The notes beneath the pieces are model-generated. The model had not been told where the DNA came from. It searched no databases and was given only the letters and a program-made list of their open reading frames with translations. The translations under genes and the position numbers were made by a program. 38,097 bases of DNA from a virus (lineage: Duplodnaviria; Heunggongvirae; Uroviricota; Caudoviricetes), in the IMG/VR virus record IMGVR_UViG_2778261087_000005; one strand, written 5' to 3'. Below, in pieces: positions 2,716-29,867 of the stretch; the stretch's first letter is position 1, and the number at the start of each line of letters is the position of its first letter.

Positions 2716-3000
2716 TTAGAACGGGCAGCCGGTACGGTGTTCCCAGTCGTATTCCGCCTGGGCGTAAGCAACTGCCGAAATGAAATCGTTGTAGGCCTCG
2801 CCAGCTTTATCGCTGCGAAGTCCTTCGTATGGGCTGGAGTCAATCGGTATGGAGAAGTGGAAGAGGCCGGACGGCTCTTTTGGCATCATGTCGATGATTT
2901 TCTGTGCCCGGTCGTCGATCCACTTCTCTTTCTCGTCGTCGAGCTGCTGCTCAACCCAGCGCCGATCTTCGATTCGGTCGTAAGTGAGGTATGCGTTCAT
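2716..3000 (-). CDS. Hypothetical acidic phage early protein
   Basis: 94-aa ORF; SD AGGAG 7 nt upstream of ATG 3000. Confidence 0.6.
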   Translation of the reverse strand: MNAYLTYDRIEDRRWVEQQLDDEKEKWIDDRAQKIIDMMPKEPSGLFHFSIPIDSSPYEGLRSDKAGEAYNDFISAVAYAQAEYDWEHRTGCPF

Positions 3001-4580: not shown

Positions 4581-5168
4581 TTAGAGGTTCGTCACATCAA
4601 CAAGCCTTGTGTGACCATTGAAAGTTGCGAAAAGTCCGCCGTCTGGCTCAACTACTGAAAGTTCAGCGTATCGAAGGAAGTCTGTTTTGATAACGGACAT
4701 CAACACCTCTCCGGTATCAATGTTTATGACCTCAAGCCGGTGCGCGTAAAAATCATCTTTGTTTTTGCTGCCGGCAAACGATAGGGCGATGTAGCGCCCA
4801 AATTCAGATATGGACGAACTGATGAGGTGAGTGGAAGTTTCTATCTTGAATAACTCTTTCCCGGTGTTATCCATGACTATGGCTGCAGCCATGTTGTTGT
4901 CTTTGCCGGTATGTATAGAAAATAAAAATCGCCCGTTAACAGCTATGCATTGAGGCTTAGGAGAAAGCTGCCCGCCGAGCTTAACCATAAACATGAATTT
5001 TTCATTCTTCAATACCGCCAGAGTGTCATCTCTGAGATTGCTTTCATCACGCTTGAAAGCACCTAGCTGCCAACATTTATCGTGGCTTAATTTGCAGGTG
5101 ATGAAGTGGTCGCCAAGCTCGTATAAGGCGCTTCCATCACTCAGATCTGTAACCTTAATTGCTTCCAT
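4581..5168 (-). CDS. Unknown 195-aa protein co-operonic with the CI repressor (cargo gene)
   Basis: ATG 5168 lies 11 nt downstream of the cI stop with SD GAGGAAG; no TM segment; visibly more AT-rich than flanking phage genes; no family recognised. Confidence 0.7.
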   Translation of the reverse strand: MEAIKVTDLSDGSALYELGDHFITCKLSHDKCWQLGAFKRDESNLRDDTLAVLKNEKFMFMVKLGGQLSPKPQCIAVNGRFLFSIHTGKDNNMAAAIVMDNTGKELFKIETSTHLISSSISEFGRYIALSFAGSKNKDDFYAHRLEVINIDTGEVLMSVIKTDFLRYAELSVVEPDGGLFATFNGHTRLVDVTNL

Positions 5169-5179
5169 GCTTAACTTCC

Positions 5180-5935
5180 TCAGCTATGAAATCTGTATGC
5201 CCTTGACTGGCTTACCAGCACTTTCGCGCAGATGCGGAGAGAAGAAAAATCACCATCTTCGATGTACCAGGTTTCATATTTTTTATTGTCTGAAATCACA
5301 GCTAATTTTTTGTGCTGCTTTTGAAGTCGCTTTATGTAGAGATCATTGTCCAGAACGAAAATGTATATGCCGTCACCGTCAAAGCAGTCGATGCTGACGT
5401 CGACGAAGATCTGGTCTCGCGGCTCGAACGTGCCAGACATCGAATCGCCATTCACGGCAATCATTTTTATGTGGTCAGCTGGGCGCCCACCAAATACGGC
5501 GCGAGCCTCTTCGGTTGAATACTCTATGGATCGTATTGTTTCAATGAACTCATCTCGCACAAGAATTCCTTGCCCAGCGCTAGCTTGAATATCAAAAACG
5601 TCTACACGGAAAGAATCGTCCCTCATTGCCATATGCCCTTCAGATATGCCATCTGCTGCACTATCGCCTAATAGGTAAGACGAGGATGTGCCAATTATAG
5701 CCGCCAGTTCCTGCAGCTTGCCACGTCTTGGAATAGCCTCCCCATTGAACCACTTGCTTACCGCTTTAGGCGTGAGCTTCATTCGCTTGGCTATTTCAGC
5801 CTGACGTCCATGAGCAGGTAAACCAGCTTTATCACAGGCCAGCGCTAGCCGTTGGGAAAACTCTTTACGCGCTTTTTCTTCTTGAACCATAGGTTCAATC
5901 ATAATATCACTTGCGTGAACTATCAGTTCCGACAT
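5180..5935 (-). CDS. CI-like prophage repressor (N-terminal HTH, C-terminal LexA-type S24 peptidase)
   Basis: HTH region GRQAEIAKRMKLTPKAVSKWFNG; C-terminal AVNGDSM (Ser) and IYIKRL (Lys) dyad motifs. True start may be ATG 5902 or 5890 rather than 5935 (see findings). Confidence 0.8.
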   Translation of the reverse strand: MSELIVHASDIMIEPMVQEEKARKEFSQRLALACDKAGLPAHGRQAEIAKRMKLTPKAVSKWFNGEAIPRRGKLQELAAIIGTSSSYLLGDSAADGISEGHMAMRDDSFRVDVFDIQASAGQGILVRDEFIETIRSIEYSTEEARAVFGGRPADHIKMIAVNGDSMSGTFEPRDQIFVDVSIDCFDGDGIYIFVLDNDLYIKRLQKQHKKLAVISDNKKYETWYIEDGDFSSLRICAKVLVSQSRAYRFHS

Positions 5936-7030: not shown

Positions 7031-8108
7031 CCTCGCAAAAGTAATACCTTTCAGACCGTCTGTAACGGTCGTGGAGCGTCAGGTGGCAGATATCGATGAT
7101 GGGTATACCCGCATCGCTAACGAGCTGCTGGAAGCGGTTATGGCTGCTGATTTAACGGCTCGCCAGCTGAAGGTCGTTCTGGCGGTGATCCGCAAAACTT
7201 ACGGGTTCGGGAAAAAGTTTGACCGCATTACCAATACCCAGATTGCAGCAATGACCGGCATTCACCATACGCATGTCTGCAAGGCCAAGAACGAGATGAT
7301 TGCAATGAACATCATCGTTACCAACGGCCTGGCGATCGGGGTGAATAAGGTGATTTCTGACTGGAATTTCAGCATTAGCCAAAATGGCAAATCATTAGCC
7401 GAAACAGCTAATGAAACATTAGCCAAGTCAGCTAATACCCATAAGCCAACTCAGCTAAACACAAAAGAAACTATTCAAAAGAAAGAAAGAAAAGATCCCC
7501 CTAAATCCCCCCAGGGGGAAAACTCACTCGCTCAGGAAGTGATGGATTACTTCAACGAGCTAACGGGTAGTCGTTGTGCTGCGCTGGCACCTTTCGAGAA
7601 AGCTCTCTCCACGGTGAAGAGCAAAGACCAGTGCTACACCGCTGAAGAGCTGAAACTCGTTATCCGCTGGGCCCATGTGAACTGGGGTCACAGCTTCAAG
7701 CCAGAGAACCTGTGCCGTATGACCCGATTTGATGGATACCTGTCAGACGCCCTGATATGGGCTGATGGTCAGGGAAGCAACCCGGCAGCCTGTCCGCACG
7801 AAGAGATCATCAAGCTCTGGAATGAAAAATTCCCTTCGAAGGCTGTGTCGCTGCATGAGTGGAACCGCCGCCGTCCGGCCTATCGAGACCTGGAAGCTGT
7901 GTGGAACGGCAAAACCACCCAGGGCAACTGGCGAGAGCTGAAGCACATGGGAATGGCCTTCGAGCTGATTAGCAAGTCTTCCCTGTTCGGCACCAGAGGC
8001 GATCAGCCATGGCTGACTCTCGACTGGATACTGAATCCGAAGAACTGGGGATCTGTCTACGAGCAGGCTATCAACGAGCACCGTGAGCGCAAGGGAGTTA
8101 CAGCATGA
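7017..8108 (+). CDS. Replication initiation protein, lambda O-like
   Basis: N-terminal region (TRIANELLEAVMAADLTARQLKVVLAVIRKTYGFGK) resembles the phage replication protein O N-terminal domain; start is probably the GTG at 7023 (SD AGGAG at 7011-7015); stop overlaps the helicase ATG as ATGA. Confidence 0.8.
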   Translation: MVVDNLAKVIPFRPSVTVVERQVADIDDGYTRIANELLEAVMAADLTARQLKVVLAVIRKTYGFGKKFDRITNTQIAAMTGIHHTHVCKAKNEMIAMNIIVTNGLAIGVNKVISDWNFSISQNGKSLAETANETLAKSANTHKPTQLNTKETIQKKERKDPPKSPQGENSLAQEVMDYFNELTGSRCAALAPFEKALSTVKSKDQCYTAEELKLVIRWAHVNWGHSFKPENLCRMTRFDGYLSDALIWADGQGSNPAACPHEEIIKLWNEKFPSKAVSLHEWNRRRPAYRDLEAVWNGKTTQGNWRELKHMGMAFELISKSSLFGTRGDQPWLTLDWILNPKNWGSVYEQAINEHRERKGVTA

Positions 8109-9478
8109 GCCGTTTTATCGATTTGTACGTTGAGCAGGCCGTCATCGGCGGGATCATGCTCGCAGCGGGCCGCACAGACGGCGTTGACATGGCGACTGAC
8201 GCGATTGAGGGGCTGACTGAGGACCACTTCACAGCAACGCCCCATAAAGTGGCTCTGAAGTCCTATAAGCGACTCAACGAATCCGGTTCGAAGATAGACC
8301 TGCTGACGTTGACCAGCGACCTTGAACGGCTTGGCGCGCTGGAAAGTGCCGGGGGATTCGCTTACCTGGCTGAATGCAGCAAAAACACACCGTCGTTCGC
8401 GAACCTTGCCTCGTACTGCGAAAAGTTGCGGGAAATGCATCTCGGCCGCCGGATGACCCTGGCGCTACAGGTAGGGATCCAGAAGCTGTCCGAACCATCC
8501 AGTGAGGGTATCGCTGACATCATCGGCAACATACAGGCCGATATCTCTGGTATTGAGCACAGTGCGGACTATGGCACTGAGCACATCACCACCGGGATCG
8601 ACATGTCGTTAGAGACTATCCAGTCGATTATCAGCGGCGATATCTGGAAGCACAAAACCGAGCTTGGCATGGCAACCATCGACAGCGCTTTTGGCGGGTT
8701 CAACAACACCGATTTCATCGTTGTCGGCGGGCGCCCGGGCATGGGGAAAACCATGTTCAGCACCACCGTGACCGAGACTGTCGGCCTGAAAAACAAAAAG
8801 CCTGTGCTGTTCTTCAGCCTGGAAATGCCAGTTGATCAGATCTCCGAACGTGTCGCGTTCCACCGGGCACGGGTGAGTAAAGAGGATTTACTCAGCAAGC
8901 AGAGCGGCGTAATGGATGGTGCCTGGGGAAAGGTCGGCCACTGCATGAAGGATTTCATCGAAGCCCCGATCTATATCAACGACAAGCCATCCCTCAGCGT
9001 TCATCAGGTGCGAGCGGAAGCCAGGCGAATGAGCAAGAAACTGGGTGGACTTGGTGTGGTCATTGTCGATTACCTCCAGAAGATGCGCATGTCTGACCCT
9101 GAGAACATGAACCGCAGCGTAGGGGAGATCGCCACCGGCCTGAAGAACCTGGCGAAAGAATTGCGTTGCCCGGTCATCGCACTGGCTCAGCTTAACCGTA
9201 AGGTCGAAGAACGTGCTAATAAGCGCCCGGTCGCAGCTGACCTCCGCGAGTCCGGTGTTATCGAGCAGGAAGCCGATGTGATTTTCATGATCTACCGGGA
9301 TGAGAAATACAACCCGAACACCGAACTGAAAGGCATCACCGAAATCATCTGTGTGAAGTCCCGCCATGCGCCGGGGGCAGAAAAGACCTACCACTTCAGC
9401 AGCCGCTACTCAGGCCTGGACCCGGTAGATTTCACCTACAGCGGCCAGATGCAACAGGAGGCTGACTATGAGTGCTAA
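8105..9478 (+). CDS. DnaB-family replicative helicase
   Basis: 457 aa; Walker A GGRPGMGKT and DnaB C-terminal domain motifs; follows the O-like gene as in P22-type replication modules. Confidence 0.85.
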   Translation: MSRFIDLYVEQAVIGGIMLAAGRTDGVDMATDAIEGLTEDHFTATPHKVALKSYKRLNESGSKIDLLTLTSDLERLGALESAGGFAYLAECSKNTPSFANLASYCEKLREMHLGRRMTLALQVGIQKLSEPSSEGIADIIGNIQADISGIEHSADYGTEHITTGIDMSLETIQSIISGDIWKHKTELGMATIDSAFGGFNNTDFIVVGGRPGMGKTMFSTTVTETVGLKNKKPVLFFSLEMPVDQISERVAFHRARVSKEDLLSKQSGVMDGAWGKVGHCMKDFIEAPIYINDKPSLSVHQVRAEARRMSKKLGGLGVVIVDYLQKMRMSDPENMNRSVGEIATGLKNLAKELRCPVIALAQLNRKVEERANKRPVAADLRESGVIEQEADVIFMIYRDEKYNPNTELKGITEIICVKSRHAPGAEKTYHFSSRYSGLDPVDFTYSGQMQQEADYEC

Positions 9479-9782: not shown

Positions 9783-10067
9783 GTATTATTTACAAGAAAA
9801 CAGTAACACCATCTGAAGATTTGGCCTGAGTACTATTCAGCCGTTCGCGCAGGACAGAAGCGTGCAGAGCTCAGATGGAATGACCGAGATTACCAGGCAG
9901 GCGACAATCTCGATCTGTGCGAGTGGGACCCGAACGAAGAAGCCTTTACCGGTGAATTCACCAAAGTCACCGTTACACATGTCGCTGAACTTGGTAACTG
10001 GATACCGGGTTATGTACTGCTGAGTAACGCTCTTTTATCGCCAGCAGTGGATGTGAAAACGACCTGA
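9779..10067 (+). pseudogene. DUF3850/ASCH-like gene, apparently frameshifted near codon 10
   Basis: ATG 9779 opens a 16-codon ORF (MSIIYKKTVTPSEDLA). The conserved DUF3850-like body (HHLKIWPEYYSAVRAGQKRAELRWNDRDYQ...) is in another frame, preceded by an in-frame TAA at 9804-9806 with no canonical start. Removing one A in GTAACA (about 9802-9807) joins the two frames. Confidence 0.5.
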
Positions 10068-10222
10068 TGCCTTGCCCATACTGCGATGGAAAGGCTGAAT
10101 TTGATTATGACGACGATAACCTCAATTGGATATCTTGTAACGCGTGCGGAATCGCTGCACTTTATGATCATGAGAAGCCCGTGCTGACGGGCACAGAAAA
10201 CAGTACGGGTGCAATAAATTAG
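10067..10222 (+). CDS. Lar-like zinc-ribbon protein (putative restriction alleviation)
   Basis: 51 aa, MPCPYCDGKAEF...x17...CNACG; ATG overlaps the upstream stop (TGATG). Not in the ORF track (below 60 aa). Confidence 0.5.
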   Translation: MPCPYCDGKAEFDYDDDNLNWISCNACGIAALYDHEKPVLTGTENSTGAIN

Positions 10223-10656
10223 TACGAAACAATTATATCAAGCTTTTCTCCAATGATTTTCAAAGAAGAGTAGATGGATTGGCCTGAAGGAGATGGATTA
10301 CTGGAATATGAATTGTTGCCGCCTTCTAAGATGGAAGCTATTAAATTTAGTTGGTGTGACGCTTCAATCACATCGCTGTAAACTGGAGTAAGGCCTATTT
10401 TTGAGAAAAAATTATAGAATGGGATTGCTTTCGATTTTGCAATTAAAAGACCTGATGACGCCTTTAGCTCATGTATTAATTCGCTATTTGGCTTAAAATT
10501 CATTATTTTACTTTGCTCGCGAAGTAAGAGTGACGAAATTCTTCCCAGATGCTCCTTGAACGAGATATACGTTTCCAATGCGCATTTGGTTATTATTTGA
10601 CCTATGACGTAGACGGTCACACCAGTGATAATTGTAGTAAAAACAGTAAGCCACAT
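10219..10656 (-). CDS. Membrane-anchored hypothetical protein (AT-rich cargo gene, antisense to early operon)
   Basis: 145 aa; N-terminal TM helix (WLTVFTTIITGVTVYVIGQII); strongly AT-rich by eye; convergent with the Lar-like gene with overlapping stop codons. Confidence 0.65.
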   Translation of the reverse strand: MWLTVFTTIITGVTVYVIGQIITKCALETYISFKEHLGRISSLLLREQSKIMNFKPNSELIHELKASSGLLIAKSKAIPFYNFFSKIGLTPVYSDVIEASHQLNLIASILEGGNNSYSSNPSPSGQSIYSSLKIIGEKLDIIVSY

Positions 10657-10790
10657 AATCAGTTAACGCCTTTAGCTAAAATGCAATTATGTATCCTATA
10701 GCTCCAGTGATTTGTCCAGATAAATTGGGTGGTCATGGCACATCATCGCCGCGACTATAAGAATACTTTGCTCATACCGTTCGCGCCGCC

Positions 10791-10964
10791 ATGCTTCAGG
10801 GTGCCACGCAAGATAGCAACTCTCCGGTGATTCCGGATGGTTGGGTGATGGTTCAGAAGGAGCCAACGCCAGATATGCTTAATGCCGCCTGGGTGTCACA
10901 TGGCATTTACCATGCATCTGCTTATCGTACGATGCTCGCAGCAGCTCCGCAGCAGGTGAAGTGA
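10791..10964 (+). CDS. Small ORF (57 aa), possibly a gene remnant
   Basis: Hand-translated (MLQGATQDSNSPVIPDGWVMVQKEPTPDMLNAAWVSHGIYHASAYRTMLAAAPQQVK); no clear SD; low confidence. Confidence 0.25.
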   Translation: MLQGATQDSNSPVIPDGWVMVQKEPTPDMLNAAWVSHGIYHASAYRTMLAAAPQQVK

Positions 10965-11001
10965 CGAACAAGTTGACGAGAGTTACCATAGATATAAATC
11001 A

Positions 11002-11024
11002 AGGCCCCTAGGGGCCTTTTATTC
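11002..11024 (+). terminator. Intrinsic terminator
   Basis: AGGCCC-ctag-GGGCCU hairpin followed by UUUUAUU. Confidence 0.6.
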
Positions 11025-11057
11025 TATGATAAACGGACTTTGTTTGAGAGTGACGCT

Positions 11058-11384
11058 ATGAAGCCCAAGAAGCTAAATGCTGAGCAGCAATACAAATTAG
11101 ACCTTGAGTTGGTCAAGAAGAAACCTGCGAACCGTACAGAGGCAAAAGCCCATTTGGCGGCGCAGTTACGGATCAGCAAGTACAAGGCGCAGAACTCATC
11201 AAAAATCCGCGCAGGCAGTTTCAGGGGGCGGAAGAAGGTGCATTTCAGTAAGGCCGAAGACGAGGCCAGGGCAGCACTAAATAAAGCCAATGCCATTAGA
11301 TTTTCCGAAGGGGAGGTCGAATCCGTCGATACGGATCGAATCTCAGAAAGTAACAAACGCTGGCGCGGGAGAACTGCTGACTAA
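11058..11384 (+). CDS. Hypothetical basic (Lys/Arg-rich) protein
   Basis: ATG 11058 within track ORF 11040..11384; stop overlaps the next ATG (TAATG). Confidence 0.55.
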
Positions 11385-11632
11385 TGTCTGACTGGAACAT
11401 TGCAGCAAAGCCGCAGGAAGATCGCGATAAGGTTAACGTTGACCTGGCTGCCTCCGGAGTGGCGTACAAAGAGCGCCTGAATATGCCGGTTATCGCTGAG
11501 GTGGTGATGCGCGAGCAGCCAGAGCATTTGCGTGATTACTTCCTTGAGCGCCTGAAGTTTTATCGCGAGAAGTCGATAACTTTACCGAAAGTTAGCGATC
11601 CGTTTTACCTGAAACAGGAGGAAGGGAAGTGA
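11384..11632 (+). CDS. Hypothetical protein (82 aa)
   Basis: Translationally coupled on both sides (TAATG upstream, GTGA downstream). Confidence 0.55.
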
Positions 11633-12279
11633 TTATTGATGAACATTTTAAGGATAGAGTCTCGAGTCATCTATCTCAGAAAATAATCGAAGACGCATTA
11701 AATGGAAGGGGATTTTTCGCCCGAAATGTGTTGGAGTCCATTCGGCTTCTTGAGGGAATGAAGGTTGCCCCATCAACTTTAGCAATGCGTCATCAAGAGC
11801 GTGAATTAAAGGGTGCGTTGGCCGGATTTCATCATATACATGTTTCAGAGGATAATTTCACTCGAGCTTTCAATGCGTACAGGCAAAAAGGAGAAGCGCC
11901 TGAGAAAAATCCATCCGAGCCGGCTTTACAAGGCCGGGGCAATCGCAATGCTATTCAGATGTTTTTGGAGCAAAATGGAGTTAGTGCTAAAGATGCTTCG
12001 TTTGAAGAACTTATCATAAGATTCCAGGATCTTATTGAACAGATGGGAGAAGAAAATGCAAAAGAGCAAATTTCTCGTATTGCTGCTGAGCTATCTTGGA
12101 AACCGTTTAAGGGTAATGATGTAATTTCTGGAGACTGGCTAGTCTATTGGGTGAGACAGGACGGTGTAAGATTTTATATCGATAGTTTTGAACACATCCC
12201 CGCAACCGATACAAAACTGCAGAATTCCACCGCAAATTCATTACACGCCATTCTTCAAAGCATGGATACCGCCGTTTGA
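11629..12279 (+). CDS. Hypothetical 216-aa protein (AT-rich cargo gene)
   Basis: GTG start 11629 with strong SD AGGAGG about 9 nt upstream; visibly AT-rich compared with neighbours; no family recognised. Confidence 0.65.
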
Positions 12280-14062: not shown

Positions 14063-14175
14063 CGCGTGACCAGATTATGCGGTACCAGGCCGAAAGCGTT
14101 AAGCGCGCCAACCTGCCGCCAGTAGCAAACCACAGCCAGAACAAAACCAACCAGCCACATAAGGAAGCCGCATGA
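14059..14175 (+). CDS. Small ORF (38 aa)
   Basis: Hand-translated; overlaps both neighbours; low confidence. Confidence 0.25.
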   Translation: MTRDQIMRYQAESVKRANLPPVANHSQNKTNQPHKEAA

Positions 14176-14861
14176 ACAGTCAGCAACTGGAATACGTACG
14201 TCAGCAGCTCATTGTGGCGACCGCAGATCTGAGCGGGGCGACGAAAGGGCAGCTGGTAGCTTTTGCCGAGAATGCGCAATTCACCGCGACGGCGCGCAGC
14301 CGGGGCCGGAAAAAGGTATTCGACAAGGATAAGCAGCGCATGGTCAACCCGGATGGTCCGCCGATGAGCGGCAGCCAGTCACGCGCTAAGGGCTCGTCTA
14401 TCGCGCTGGTCAGCCCTGTGGAGTTTGGTACCGCGTCATGGCGCCGCGCCGTCCTGTCGCTGGAAGAACACCAGAAAGCGTGGCTGCTGTGGAACTACAG
14501 CGAGAATATCCGCTTCGAATACCAGGTGGCGATCACCCAGTGGGCGTGGGCAGAGTTCCGGGAACAGCTCGGCGCGAAGAAGGTGGCCGGCAAGACGATT
14601 GAGCGCCTGAAGAAGCTTATCTGGCTGGCGGCGCAGGACGTCAAAGCGGAGCTGGCGGGTAAGGATGTGTATCAGCATCAGGACCTGGCCGCCCTGTGTG
14701 GCGTTAAGCCGGATAACTGGTGTCATAACTACGCCGATTACTGGCTTGCCATGTGCGCCATCTTTAAGCGGCTTGATGGCGATTCACTCCTCTGTACTGT
14801 GAGAACACGATCACAACAAAAAGCGACTTTTTCGCAGCAGGGTATTGCAAAAGTCAATTAA
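14172..14861 (+). CDS. Putative late-gene antiterminator (Q position)
   Basis: 229-aa ORF as the last early gene before the lysis cassette; SD AAGGAAG; assignment is from position, family not verified. Confidence 0.45.
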   Translation: MNSQQLEYVRQQLIVATADLSGATKGQLVAFAENAQFTATARSRGRKKVFDKDKQRMVNPDGPPMSGSQSRAKGSSIALVSPVEFGTASWRRAVLSLEEHQKAWLLWNYSENIRFEYQVAITQWAWAEFREQLGAKKVAGKTIERLKKLIWLAAQDVKAELAGKDVYQHQDLAALCGVKPDNWCHNYADYWLAMCAIFKRLDGDSLLCTVRTRSQQKATFSQQGIAKVN

Positions 14862-14926
14862 ATAGCATACTTTTCATGTAAATCTGATATCTTCGCCATA
14901 GCTTTGTAGGACGACAAAGAATTAAC

Positions 14927-14958
14927 AGCCTCGCCATCGTGCGGGGCTTTGTTTTTTG
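14927..14958 (+). terminator. Intrinsic terminator about 65 nt downstream of the Q-position gene (tR'-like)
   Basis: 8-bp stem AGCCUCGC/GCGGGGCU with a 6-nt loop, followed by UUGUUUUUUG. Confidence 0.55.
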
Positions 14959-15050
14959 TGCTTTCTGTAAACCAAGTGGGCGTTAAAAGTTAAAAATCAT
15001 TATTTACTTATTTAAAATGTGGCCTCCACTTAAAACAGAGAGACCTCATC

Positions 15051-15290
15051 ATGAAGAATTTCCAGCTTTATGTTGGCGGCACTAACAACATCACCTATCG
15101 TTACGAAATTCATAAGATGGATGATGCTTTTAGTGTTCGGATTTTTAATGTCATCGATAAAGCACACAAAGAAGTGGGGGCTAAACTCCTTCGCTCAGTT
15201 TCATCTCACGACGTAATTGATGAGTGCGTGTCACATTACAAAAGGCAAGCGCAAGGCGTTAAGGGTTTTCTTCGCTGGCTTGGATTGTGA
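15051..15290 (+). CDS. Hypothetical 79-aa protein (AT-rich cargo gene in the Q-holin interval)
   Basis: ATG 15051; AT-rich upstream region with promoter-like hexamers; own terminator downstream; no family recognised. Confidence 0.6.
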   Translation: MKNFQLYVGGTNNITYRYEIHKMDDAFSVRIFNVIDKAHKEVGAKLLRSVSSHDVIDECVSHYKRQAQGVKGFLRWLGL

Positions 15291-16934: not shown

Positions 16935-17112
16935 CCTGACCGCAGACACGCCGATCCCGGGAATGGTGGTTCCGTTCACTTGGCAGGCAAGTCTGGAGTT
17001 AAACGCTCAGCTTTATACGGCGTTGGGGCAGTGCAATCTAGATAAGGCTGGTATAAGGAAAATCGAGAATTCAAGACTTGGTTCACGAATCAGAATTTTG
17101 AAAGCTAACTAA
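16825..17112 (+). CDS. Rz1-like outer-membrane lipoprotein spanin (overlapping Rz in another frame)
   Basis: Starts inside Rz in another frame (TTG 16825 or GTG 16831); signal peptide with lipobox LLTAC; Pro-rich mature region; extends 178 nt past the Rz stop. Confidence 0.5.
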
Positions 17113-17150
17113 CTATAAGTATGATGTTTTCTCCAACATAAGGAGTGAAC

Positions 17151-17420
17151 ATGGAACGTAATAAACTGGTAAGCACTTTAAGATTCGTAAGCGCAAAAAC
17201 AGCAAACTCATTTAAATATGAAATCTATATCGATTTGGATGGTAATCCGCCTTTTGCGGTTCTTTACACGGAAGTGAAGATGGGTACCGATTTAGACCCA
17301 AGAAACTTAGGTGACCGCTATGTTTGGGTGAAGATTGATGGGTATATTCGCCTAAATGGCCCAGACATTGAGCAGTTAGAAAGTGAGTGCGAGACGCATA
17401 TTAAACAGATGCTTGTTTAA
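17151..17420 (+). CDS. Hypothetical 89-aa protein (AT-rich cargo gene after the lysis cassette)
   Basis: ATG 17151 with SD AAGGAG 5 nt upstream; own terminator; shares motifs with the 79-aa protein at 15051. Confidence 0.6.
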   Translation: MERNKLVSTLRFVSAKTANSFKYEIYIDLDGNPPFAVLYTEVKMGTDLDPRNLGDRYVWVKIDGYIRLNGPDIEQLESECETHIKQMLV

Positions 17421-17432
17421 AGCGTAGTAGAT

Positions 17433-17453
17433 GCCGCCTTCGGGCGGTTTTTT
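17433..17453 (+). terminator. Intrinsic terminator
   Basis: CCGCC-uucg-GGCGG hairpin followed by UUUUUU. Confidence 0.7.
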
Positions 17454-17488
17454 ATTGCTATCACCATGAGTAGGCTCATCGTAATGGC

Positions 17489-21317: not shown

Positions 21318-22248
21318 AGCTGACCCTACGCAGTCCTCGCGGCAGGTCAGCAGGATTTTCAACGATATCGAAGATAGGTATCTGAACATCAAGCGCAGGC
21401 TTAGGGCTCTGCTTGATCTGCGGCTGACCGGGCAGCAGCGTGAGGAGAACGCACAGCAGTCCTGGATGATGTGCAACAACGAGGGCGCAGAGCCTTTGCT
21501 GTATCAGGTCAATGCCGGTAAGTTCATCTATGACATGACCGCCGCTGAGTTGGCCGACCTGTTACAGGTTGTGCAATCTATTCTGGATGACGAGCTTCTC
21601 GATGGTGGTAGTCAGAACCTCTGGGCGATGGATTACGTCATTGCGGAGTATGATCGCGGCACGCTAAACGCCTTCACCAACCTTTCGGTGCAGTCGCAGG
21701 TGTACGCCAGCCAGACGACGCTACAGCAACTTTTAAGCAGCCCGGGCTATCTGAACCAGATAGCGTCAGCCAGGCTGACAACGTTTAGCTACTGGAAGGT
21801 TATCAGCGATACCGCCCGCGCCGATCTGACCAACATCATCACTGACGCAGTAGCGCGCGGGGTTAATCCTCGCGAAACAGCCAGCGTTATCAGTAAGCGC
21901 CTCGATGTGTCGATGTCGAAGGCGAAGAACATCGCTCAGACCGAGCAGGTCGGCGCGCTGCGGCAGGCTCAGTGGAATGAATCGGACTGGGCTGCTGACC
22001 GGCTGGGGCTGAATACCGGCCTGTTATGGCTTTCTGCGCTCAAGCTAACAACGCGAACCTGGCACGCCAGCCGCCACGGCAAGGTCTACACCACTGAAGA
22101 GGTGCGGGACTTCTACGCCGAGAACGGCAACCGGTACAACTGCTATTGCAGTCAGATCCCTGTGCTACTTAATGACGATGGCAGTATCTTCAATGAAGGG
22201 TTGGCAGATAAGCTGAAGAAAGAACGCCAGAAGTGGTCCGCTCGGTAG
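21265..22248 (+). CDS. Head morphogenesis protein (Mu F / SPP1 gp7-like)
   Basis: 327 aa following the portal; start overlaps the portal 3' end; exact start uncertain. Confidence 0.6.
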   Translation: MMMTAQTRIGTPIVPRNKADPTQSSRQVSRIFNDIEDRYLNIKRRLRALLDLRLTGQQREENAQQSWMMCNNEGAEPLLYQVNAGKFIYDMTAAELADLLQVVQSILDDELLDGGSQNLWAMDYVIAEYDRGTLNAFTNLSVQSQVYASQTTLQQLLSSPGYLNQIASARLTTFSYWKVISDTARADLTNIITDAVARGVNPRETASVISKRLDVSMSKAKNIAQTEQVGALRQAQWNESDWAADRLGLNTGLLWLSALKLTTRTWHASRHGKVYTTEEVRDFYAENGNRYNCYCSQIPVLLNDDGSIFNEGLADKLKKERQKWSAR

Positions 22249-22305
22249 ACATTTACGTATTAAATATATATAAAACAGCATTAAAATTTTTACGGATGGA
22301 AAATA

Positions 22306-22746
22306 ATGCGGAAGATTTTGTCTTGGATCGGAGGGCTCATCGCAATAACGTCGGGAGTGGTTACGCTTGTTGCTTTCTTTCTTCCACAGTACGTACCCGA
22401 GCAAACCAGATTAGCCATTGGGCGCTTTCTTGAGTTTATGAAGGTAAACCCATATGGCACTCTTATTACGATTGTGTGCTTAGTACTTTTAGCTGTAGTT
22501 TGGATGTTAAGCAGTAAAGTGATTGAGCTTACTAAAGGAACCAAGCTATTCGCCATGTGCGGATTGTACTGGAGCAAAGACAATCAGCCTTTTTGCCCAA
22601 AGTGTAAAGAACCAGCTTCAGTGCATGACGATGATGAGTCTTATCGCTGTAATTCATGCGGAAGAATTATTTTTCCCAGTTTCGAGTCTAAACAAATATC
22701 CATCACGAAAGCTCTGCAAATAGTAAATTCAAAAAGAGGTCGCTAA
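22306..22746 (+). CDS. Membrane-anchored zinc-ribbon protein (AT-rich cargo gene inside the head module)
   Basis: 146 aa; two predicted TM helices; C-terminal CPKC...x18...CNSCG zinc ribbon; AT-rich; stop codon lies inside its own terminator hairpin. Confidence 0.65.
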   Translation: MRKILSWIGGLIAITSGVVTLVAFFLPQYVPEQTRLAIGRFLEFMKVNPYGTLITIVCLVLLAVVWMLSSKVIELTKGTKLFAMCGLYWSKDNQPFCPKCKEPASVHDDDESYRCNSCGRIIFPSFESKQISITKALQIVNSKRGR

Positions 22747-29352: not shown

Positions 29353-29457
29353 AAAAAAGCTATATAGCCATTTTTAGTAGGGGGGATTTGGAGTAGTTCT
29401 ATGATCGTTTTCATCTCTATCTGGTAGCATCCTTTCGAACTAATAGGAGATGTGAAA

Positions 29458-29817
29458 ATGAAAAAAGTCTTTATCCTTGGATTGGGTTTATTATCTTTCT
29501 ATGTCAGTGCCTCTGAATTTTCTGAGCAGGATTTAATCGAGTTAGGAAAAAAAGAAATCCGGACTGAAATCTCATTGCCAACATCTTTTTCACAGGAAAA
29601 ATTTATTCCTGATACTCGTGACAATCCATCTTCTCGAAGTGGAAATGTTTGCCTTAAAGTCTCTGGAAGAAAGAATGACGGAACTGCAATGGATCTAGCT
29701 GTCTACGGAGTGCACATAGCCACAAAAGGTGAACAAGCTACTTTTGGTGAAATTTTTAAATTTATTGGCGAATCTGAAATGCAAAGTTCAGAAGCCAAAG
29801 AATCTTGCAAATTTTAA
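29458..29817 (+). CDS. Secreted hypothetical protein (AT-rich cargo gene before the tape measure gene)
   Basis: ATG 29458 with SD AGGAGA; classic Sec signal peptide MKKVFILGLGLLSFYVSAS/E; AT-rich; own terminator. Confidence 0.65.
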   Translation: MKKVFILGLGLLSFYVSASEFSEQDLIELGKKEIRTEISLPTSFSQEKFIPDTRDNPSSRSGNVCLKVSGRKNDGTAMDLAVYGVHIATKGEQATFGEIFKFIGESEMQSSEAKESCKF

Positions 29818-29867
29818 ATTCGCCATGATGTTATAATACCTCAACATCATTGGATTTCATTAATGAA

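Follow-up and report, generated by a model that had tools for sequence, protein, structure and literature searches.

An antisense, AT-rich gene in an Escherichia coli lambdoid prophage is a candidate single-gene moron from a widespread unnamed family

Introduction

Why should a strongly AT-rich reading frame lie against the direction of the early-right operon in a lambdoid prophage, and what could it do for its carrier? The question is raised by a 38,097-nucleotide (nt) stretch of viral DNA (Caudoviricetes; IMG/VR record IMGVR_UViG_2778261087_000005; hereafter the window), in which an open reading frame (ORF) of 145 codons runs leftward at 10219–10656. A first-pass annotation, made from the letters of this DNA, had called it a lysogenic-conversion or exclusion gene, a label read from its context that we find reasonable. 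Morons are defined as added DNA of deviant guanine-plus-cytosine (GC) content that brings a promoter and a terminator of its own and is expressed while the prophage is repressed (PMC3594210). We propose, tentatively, that the antisense gene and its leader form an independently expressed single-gene moron of about 503 nt, whose inner-membrane product would protect the carrier from phage through exclusion or abortive infection.

Results

An antisense gene in a lambdoid early region

The window is a lambdoid prophage, and the host of the matching DNA is Escherichia coli. Over 1.3 kb (9800–11100) it is 100% identical to prophages of GB089, 09-00049, O22:H8 154 and OkiPb01715, and 99.6% identity was found in two further genomes. 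The RefSeq annotation of the identical prophage in E. coli O22:H8 154 gives the gene order as replication protein, DnaB-type helicase, ren, DUF3850, a 51-residue zinc-ribbon ORF, the antisense gene, a theta homolog, YbcN, NinE, NinG and Q. Within this annotation the gene at 10219–10656 is the sole leftward coding sequence from cro to the late genes, which bears out its earlier description as opposite in strand to all neighbouring early genes. The gene and the membrane segment it encodes are as follows.

10219..10656, minus strand: antisense gene, 145 residues, ATG start; called as an ORF, with a phrog_7512 match, an N-terminal transmembrane helix and a four-helix bundle
10588..10653, minus strand: transmembrane helix, codons 2–23, with the residue stripe T8-G12-F/Y16-G19-Q20-L/T23; from hydropathy and a 73-member alignment

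The gene is compositionally foreign, as had been claimed, with a GC content of 0.365 against 0.522 for the window and 0.46–0.54 for the adjacent ORFs. Its description as the most AT-rich stretch depends on the scale of measurement. With 400-nt windows 10201–10600 has the lowest GC of the whole window (0.362), and the description stands; with 438-nt windows the gene comes second (0.358), by 0.004, after 29429–29866 (0.354), and it does not. The region ties as the most AT-rich part of the window.

The reading frame and its start are conserved

Long ORFs are conspicuous in AT-rich DNA, where stop codons are comparatively frequent, and RefSeq annotates only a 94-residue piece of this one, or nothing distinct in some genomes. 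A chance ORF within AT-rich non-coding DNA is nonetheless next to impossible here and has already been refuted by the conservation data. The protein matches the profile of phrog_7512 (E=2.6e-37, 129 bits) over residues 3–145, aligned with positions 3–139 of 141, in a family whose 1151 representatives are of constant length. Its close homolog clusters (n=24), in Escherichia, Citrobacter, Klebsiella, Kosakonia and Serratia, share 42–99% identity at near-constant length. The first-pass annotation had named loss of the frame in related prophages as the observation that would speak against its reading; the frame is kept, variation falls mostly at third codon positions, and the pairwise ratio of nonsynonymous to synonymous substitution rates (dN/dS) is 0.10–0.36 for pairs with unsaturated synonymous sites. 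Because the frame persists down to 42% identity and the family is this large, we take the ORF to be real beyond chance, and sequence conservation shows it to be a genuine gene under purifying selection.

The RefSeq call, made by the Prokaryotic Genome Annotation Pipeline (PGAP), starts at Met52 and gives 94 residues (WP_123282430.1; 10219–10503, minus strand), leaving out the membrane helix. Among six diverged copies, however, codons 1–51 carry 14, 5 and 45 variable sites at codon positions 1, 2 and 3, respectively, and a Shine-Dalgarno-like AAGG is located at 10669–10672, 13–16 nt before the first ATG. Because these codons vary mainly at third positions and AAGG precedes the first ATG, we consider the 145-residue form with its membrane helix to be the real product; judged by this codon pattern, the 94-residue start call is wrong.

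Predicted architecture of the protein

The single N-terminal membrane helix that had been claimed for the 145-residue protein corresponds to one hydrophobic segment at residues 2–23 (Kyte-Doolittle 19-residue mean 1.7), with no second such segment. An AlphaFold2 model built from the family alignment (predicted local distance difference test 78.9, predicted template modelling score 0.63) forms a four-helix bundle with helices at residues 2–46, the first 22 residues of which are the membrane span, 58–77, 93–112 and 128–139; a Ser/Pro/Asn-rich loop at 115–124 is disordered in the model. All 73 of the diverse family members aligned lack lysine or arginine before the helix and have on average 2.7 such residues in the 15 that follow. 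The model and charge pattern together predict a single-pass inner-membrane protein with the N terminus out and the C terminus in, placing a four-helix bundle of about 120 residues in the cytoplasm. We rejected a cleavable signal peptide, given the absence of a positively charged n-region, the 22-residue length of the hydrophobic run and the absence of an AxA-type site.

The membrane helix is itself conserved. Q20 is present in 99% and G12 in 90% of the 73 members, and the conserved residues fall on one face (permutation p=0.035). Small and polar residues spaced like those of this stripe mediate specific helix-helix packing in membranes. Because the conserved residues share one face, the helix is likely a working surface, for self-association or partner binding, more than an anchor. 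Hints of similarity to YmoB/TomB-like or RsgI-like proteins were rejected as non-specific.

This architecture would also fit a mobile cargo protein that binds and modulates some membrane protein of the host, for instance a transporter, a protease, a divisome component or an envelope-stress sensor, and so alters the physiology or fitness of the host in a broad form of lysogenic conversion distinct from defence. We regard such a role as unlikely, though to be reckoned with, and return to it below with the evidence from gene neighbourhoods.

The gene and its leader appear to form a mobile unit

The region upstream of the ATG falls into two parts.

10657..10721 (65 nt), minus strand: AT-rich leader and putative weak promoter region, travelling with the gene (GC 0.354; similarity to Citrobacter copy L002)
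10722..10790, no strand assigned: spacer of ordinary composition outside the mobile module (GC 0.522; stop at 10758–10760, in frame with the 57-residue ORF that follows)

The window and the Citrobacter copy (L002) resemble each other from about 62 nt before the ATG to the stop codon, and past the stop codon the sequence of other copies is unrelated to that of the window. Because similarity begins and ends at these points, we delimit a mobile unit of about 503 nt (10219–10721), with a GC content of 0.364 for gene and leader together. The earlier description of about 130 nt of AT-rich upstream sequence thus holds for the proximal 65 nt and fails for the distal 69 of the 134 nt at 10657–10790 (GC 0.52); the spacer does not resemble what lies upstream of the gene in other copies.

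Across 34 related viral-contig loci the gene has a GC of 0.35–0.42, against flanks of 0.49–0.55 in 33 of them, and in related viral-contig and assembly loci it is mostly antisense to its neighbours. In prophages of Citrobacter and Kosakonia it is placed between O/P-type replication genes and ninB or theta, with differing immediate neighbours. These comparisons support the view that the unit moves between different lambdoid prophages, always within the replication-to-ninB interval. With respect to the definition of a moron, the deviant GC is present, and the same gene with its leader of about 62 nt stands between different flanks in E. coli, Citrobacter and Kosakonia. Neither 5426 E. coli genomes nor the phage records yielded a relative whose site is empty, so "inserted" is used here on the basis of composition and module boundaries. 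In Kosakonia cowanii CP107077.1 (L007, L009) the gene (8001–8447) is kept in what looks like a degraded prophage, with tail genes on one side, a few early ORFs and an integrase on the other, and no replication or lysis genes between.

Three further features border the unit in the window.

10067..10222, plus strand: Lar-like convergent neighbour, a 51-residue zinc-ribbon ORF, outside the mobile module
10791..10964, plus strand: 57-residue ORF; it matches only the C-terminal ends of phrog_12449, phrog_60 and phrog_5913 and is not in the PGAP annotation
11001..11018, no strand assigned: G+C-rich palindromic hairpin with T-runs on both sides, bidirectional and terminator-like; from a promoter and terminator scan of both strands

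As previously reported for this locus, the antisense gene and the Lar-like gene overlap at their stops, the TAA of the former (10219–10221, minus strand) sharing 2 nt with the TAG of the latter (10220–10222). The name Lar-like is plausible and refers to a sub-threshold match to Pfam Lar_restr_allev (E=6e-6; 26.8 bits, under the 28.6-bit curated cut-off). This convergent overlap, with no terminator detected after the antisense gene, means that a leftward transcript would run antisense into the early genes. The locus could accordingly have a regulatory or lytic role, in which leftward transcription interferes with the early-right operon (Lar-like gene, DUF3850, ren, helicase) or the protein acts in phage development. 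We consider this very improbable, because the downstream neighbour differs in every related prophage, the module stopping at the stop codon, and because there is no lytic operon for the homologs of IncX4 and IncF plasmids and of chromosomal islets to regulate; it is also the protein sequence itself that is under purifying selection.

On the other side, the 57-residue ORF is 45% identical to residues 211–265 of a 268-residue nin-region protein of E. coli C8. This ORF, which borders the module, was probably truncated and left behind at a recombination joint; the spacer probably derives from the same gene, of which the ORF represents the tail. The hairpin beyond it occupies a place homologous to that of an annotated terminator in phage HK639; it would keep leftward read-through out of the antisense gene and, for rightward transcription, would mark a terminator of the nin type. 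We also weighed a conserved association with the theta (HolE/Hot) homolog, which is near the gene in the window, in L002–L005 and in phage D6, and rejected it after finding it absent from the Kosakonia, IncX4 and environmental loci; the nearby theta homolog is probably a coincidence of nin-region content.

The family spans many kinds of mobile DNA

An exhaustive profile search returned 1151 representatives (50% clusters) at E<=1e-3, 320 of them at E<=1e-10, and almost all are 135–160 residues long. The window protein had no match in Pfam or NCBIfam at E<=1. For the 73 diverse members, Pfam gave two unrelated single matches only, PADLOC-DB 2.0 gave four scattered single matches (E 0.004–0.007), and a PDB profile search found no relative. 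A scan of genome contigs with the alignment of close homologs confirmed no locus, and literature searches on the accessions, phrog_7512, and IncX4 with phage defence found no paper; broader ones on morons and exclusion turned up background alone. By these searches the phrog_7512 family is large, unnamed and without a Pfam, PADLOC or PDB entry.

Homologs with about 47% identity are present on 342 plasmids of PLSDB, of which 318 are from E. coli and 261 are conjugative; carriers include IncX4 and IncF backbones as well as 47-kb phage-plasmids. In the P1-like phage D6 the homolog (orf109) lies between humD and phd/doc. Profile comparison with hhalign identifies the IncX4 protein and D6 orf109 (probability 99.8–99.9%), like the members of phrog_7512, as true full-length homologs of the same architecture, though only about 45–48% identical over the core. 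The plasmid and phage-plasmid homologs WP_000616195.1 (IncX4) and WP_016240784.1 (phage-plasmids) all go by the name "hypothetical protein", and both plasmid variants checked occur on >1000 contigs each. Unlike the window copy, plasmid homologs mostly run in the direction of their neighbours, and their promoter is better. An IncFII/VirB plasmid and an 84-kb Serratia plasmid of phage-like content also carry members, and another is located next to an insertion sequence (IS) element. We also observed dqlB, a DinQ-like type I toxin gene, 2–3 kb downstream of the homolog on an IncF plasmid (L052, 7450–7545) and on an IncX4 plasmid (L053, 8226–8321), which may reflect a shared accessory segment or coincidence.

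A more distant clade of 154-residue proteins occurs in Methylobacter, Nitrosomonas, Burkholderiales, Chloroflexota and Nitrospinota, and its contexts were read on long contigs at six distant loci. These place the gene beside an ApeA HEPN protein; within an integrative element that also carries an IS, AlpA and a peptidase S24 gene; flanked by a BglII-like nuclease on one side and DUF2726 on the other, adjoining an IS110 element; ahead of RelB/YafQ and HicB modules (L060); and adjoining an integrase and an Abi_C protein. The sixth context is considered below. The sequence comparisons thus show a family that spans prophages, phage-plasmids, conjugative plasmids and chromosomal islets in several phyla. 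A two-gene system was rejected, there being no recurrent partner ORF in the contexts examined.

Toxin-antitoxin genes recur among the neighbours (phd/doc in D6, RelE/ParE in L051, ccdAB in L052, ParE in L048, and RelB/YafQ with HicB in L060), and the gene encodes one small membrane protein whose helix contains polar residues. Both features would suit a gene that serves the mobile element itself, either as a toxin for addiction or maintenance that acts on the membrane and whose antidote, for example an antisense RNA, has escaped recognition, or as a counter-defence or establishment factor. Such a role nevertheless appears improbable. There is no conserved adjacent antitoxin ORF, nothing is conserved past the stop codon where an antisense regulator could lie, and no RNA family was matched in or beside the gene when the whole window was scanned against Rfam at gathering thresholds. 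A protein of 145 residues with a folded bundle is unlike type I toxins, and retention in the degraded K. cowanii prophage better fits a benefit to the host. Counter-defence proteins, moreover, do not as a rule have a membrane anchor or a gene that runs antisense to the lytic operon.

Comparison with known exclusion proteins

Several characterised prophage proteins resemble the antisense protein in outline. HK97 gp15, encoded by a moron, resides in the inner membrane and prevents superinfection (Cumby et al. 2012, as summarised in PMC3594210). Like the antisense gene, it is a small, single-gene lambdoid moron that has one N-terminal hydrophobic helix, no partner and a GC content unlike that of its neighbours; it is thought to act from the prophage, and its function has been demonstrated. 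It differs in its 62-residue length and in its location in the tail operon, on the same strand and with a putative terminator, whereas the antisense protein has 145 residues, a predicted folded four-helix bundle, an antisense position in the nin region and no terminator detected.

P22 SieA is a protein of the inner membrane, 162–164 residues long and predicted to span it three times, that blocks the injection of DNA (PMC10883804). It is likewise a stand-alone protein of similar size, encoded leftward; it is expressed from the prophage by its own promoter, away from the immunity region. It differs in having three predicted transmembrane domains rather than one, and in its location between gene 16 and mnt. 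Lambda RexB and lambda and P22 SieB are also prophage-expressed membrane proteins that act against other phages, and RexB, with 144 residues, is near the antisense protein in length; they belong, however, to the immunity or early-left region and not to the nin region. RexB is polytopic and requires RexA.

The 73-member profile was compared by hhalign with lambda SieB, RexA and RexB, P22 SieA and SieB, and HK97 gp15, and gave probabilities of 0.1–1.1% (1.1% for gp15, 0.4% for SieA, at most 0.5% for RexB and SieB), whereas true family members used as positive controls gave 99.6–99.9%. Because profile comparison shows no relationship, the antisense gene, if it works like gp15 or SieA, would do so by analogy, from outside all their families.

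Weighing a protective role

The proposed sequence of events is as follows. The unit would have been shuffled horizontally into the replication-to-nin interval so that it points against the early-right operon, where a weak promoter of its own may drive transcription in the lysogen or, for the homologs, the plasmid-bearing cell. The product would act at the inner membrane by helix-helix contacts, through self-association or by binding a host or phage membrane component. The carrier would then be protected from incoming phage, either because genome entry is blocked (exclusion) or because a membrane-damaging abortive response is triggered through the cytoplasmic bundle. We favour a protective reading because of the moron anatomy of the unit, its spread over every kind of mobile element without a partner, and the neighbours of the distant clade.

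A number of observations weigh against this proposal, and the expression signals are its weakest part. The first-pass annotation had called for promoter prediction on the minus strand. A consensus scan of 10657–10790 found no promoter, and the best sigma70-type position-weight candidate upstream of the window copy, TAGGAT (10693–10698, at -42), scores 4.8, no better than shuffled sequence (6.9 +/- 2.0). A -10-like TAnnAT is present at -34 to -44 from the ATG in most loci, with upstream regions otherwise diverged, and the plasmid and phage-plasmid copies carry TAGACA-N17/18-TA(G/A)GAT, a good promoter match. Transcription of the antisense gene independently of the lytic programme is therefore plausible from these motifs. 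Downstream of 10219 the scan found no intrinsic terminator on the minus strand, so the terminator that belongs to the definition of a moron was not detected; the 6-bp GC hairpin at 10177–10192, inside the Lar-like ORF, has no U-tract.

The remaining points against protection concern the protein and its surroundings. The modelled fold is a generic helical bundle without a diagnostic relative, the window protein has no match in PADLOC-DB 2.0 at E<=1, and the hhalign comparison described above separates the family from the exclusion proteins. A bundle predicted to be cytoplasmic is, moreover, not an obvious geometry for blocking a periplasmic injection conduit. The neighbourhood association with defence genes comes from only six distant loci, and at one of these (L057) the gene lies among housekeeping genes.

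Some observations would also fit a modulator of a host membrane protein, the role raised above from the architecture: the lack of resemblance to known defence proteins, the distant copy among housekeeping genes and the carriage of the family on many kinds of mobile DNA. This role is set back by the several distant copies found in islets with defence or toxin-antitoxin genes; it also offers no particular host partner by name, and no host gene was seen to co-vary. The protective moron remains the reading that we propose. A bolder form of it, in which phrog_7512 is a widespread, unrecognised single-gene family of defence against phage or other mobile elements, its bundle sensing an invader component and its Gly/Gln-faced helix self-associating to breach the membrane or block the genome-entry channel, is speculative and somewhat unlikely.

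Other features of the prophage window

The window starts with a host gene for a LacY-family oligosaccharide transporter of the major facilitator superfamily (1–1248; Pfam LacY_symp E=1e-193). Because other E. coli genomes, for example H72–H75, which presumably do not have this prophage, match only to about 1713, the left prophage junction is placed near that position; no integrase was seen at the left end of the window. Compared with the strain-154 record (L001), about 4.75 kb of the early-left operon is missing at about 2706–2716, between a 99-residue ORF (2407–2706) and gamL (2716–3000), and three other complete genomes break their match at this site. The missing genes are TraR/DksA, DUF551, an MT-A70 pseudogene, DUF1317, an exonuclease, a helix-turn-helix gene and RecT. 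From this comparison, the window copy seems to derive from a deletion that removed the recombination module.

Directly downstream of the cI-like repressor gene (5180–5935, minus strand), in the position of lambda's rexAB, is a 195-residue ORF (4581–5168, minus strand). It has no Pfam or PADLOC match and is another candidate prophage-expressed gene. The Q antiterminator gene (14172–14861) is directly followed, at the edge of an AT-rich island (14810–15247), by a full-length match to the Hfq-binding small RNA isrJ (RF01393; 14877–14950, plus strand; 54.8 bits against a gathering score of 37). Other AT-rich islands in the phage DNA of 52–58% GC are located at 29429–29866, 17035–17472, 22246–22683 and 11629–12279. 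Their ORFs are 29452–29817 (121 residues, in the region of GC 0.354) and 17145–17420 (91 residues), both without annotation, 22306–22746 (146 residues, weak zinc-ribbon matches only) and 11629–12279 (216 residues, no family); these are likely additional plus-strand cargo genes.

Discussion

The case made here is a sound and fairly ordinary moron call, not one to surprise a specialist, and it has uncovered an unnamed and widespread family whose members are candidates for phage challenge. The family, which numbers about 1150 cluster representatives but is absent from Pfam, PADLOC and the PDB, merits definition regardless of its function. If the protective role is true, phrog_7512 would provide a compact, one-gene determinant of 145 residues carried on prophages and on the clinically common IncX4 and IncF backbones, and it would be relevant to host range in phage therapy and to the competition of plasmids and prophages with phages.

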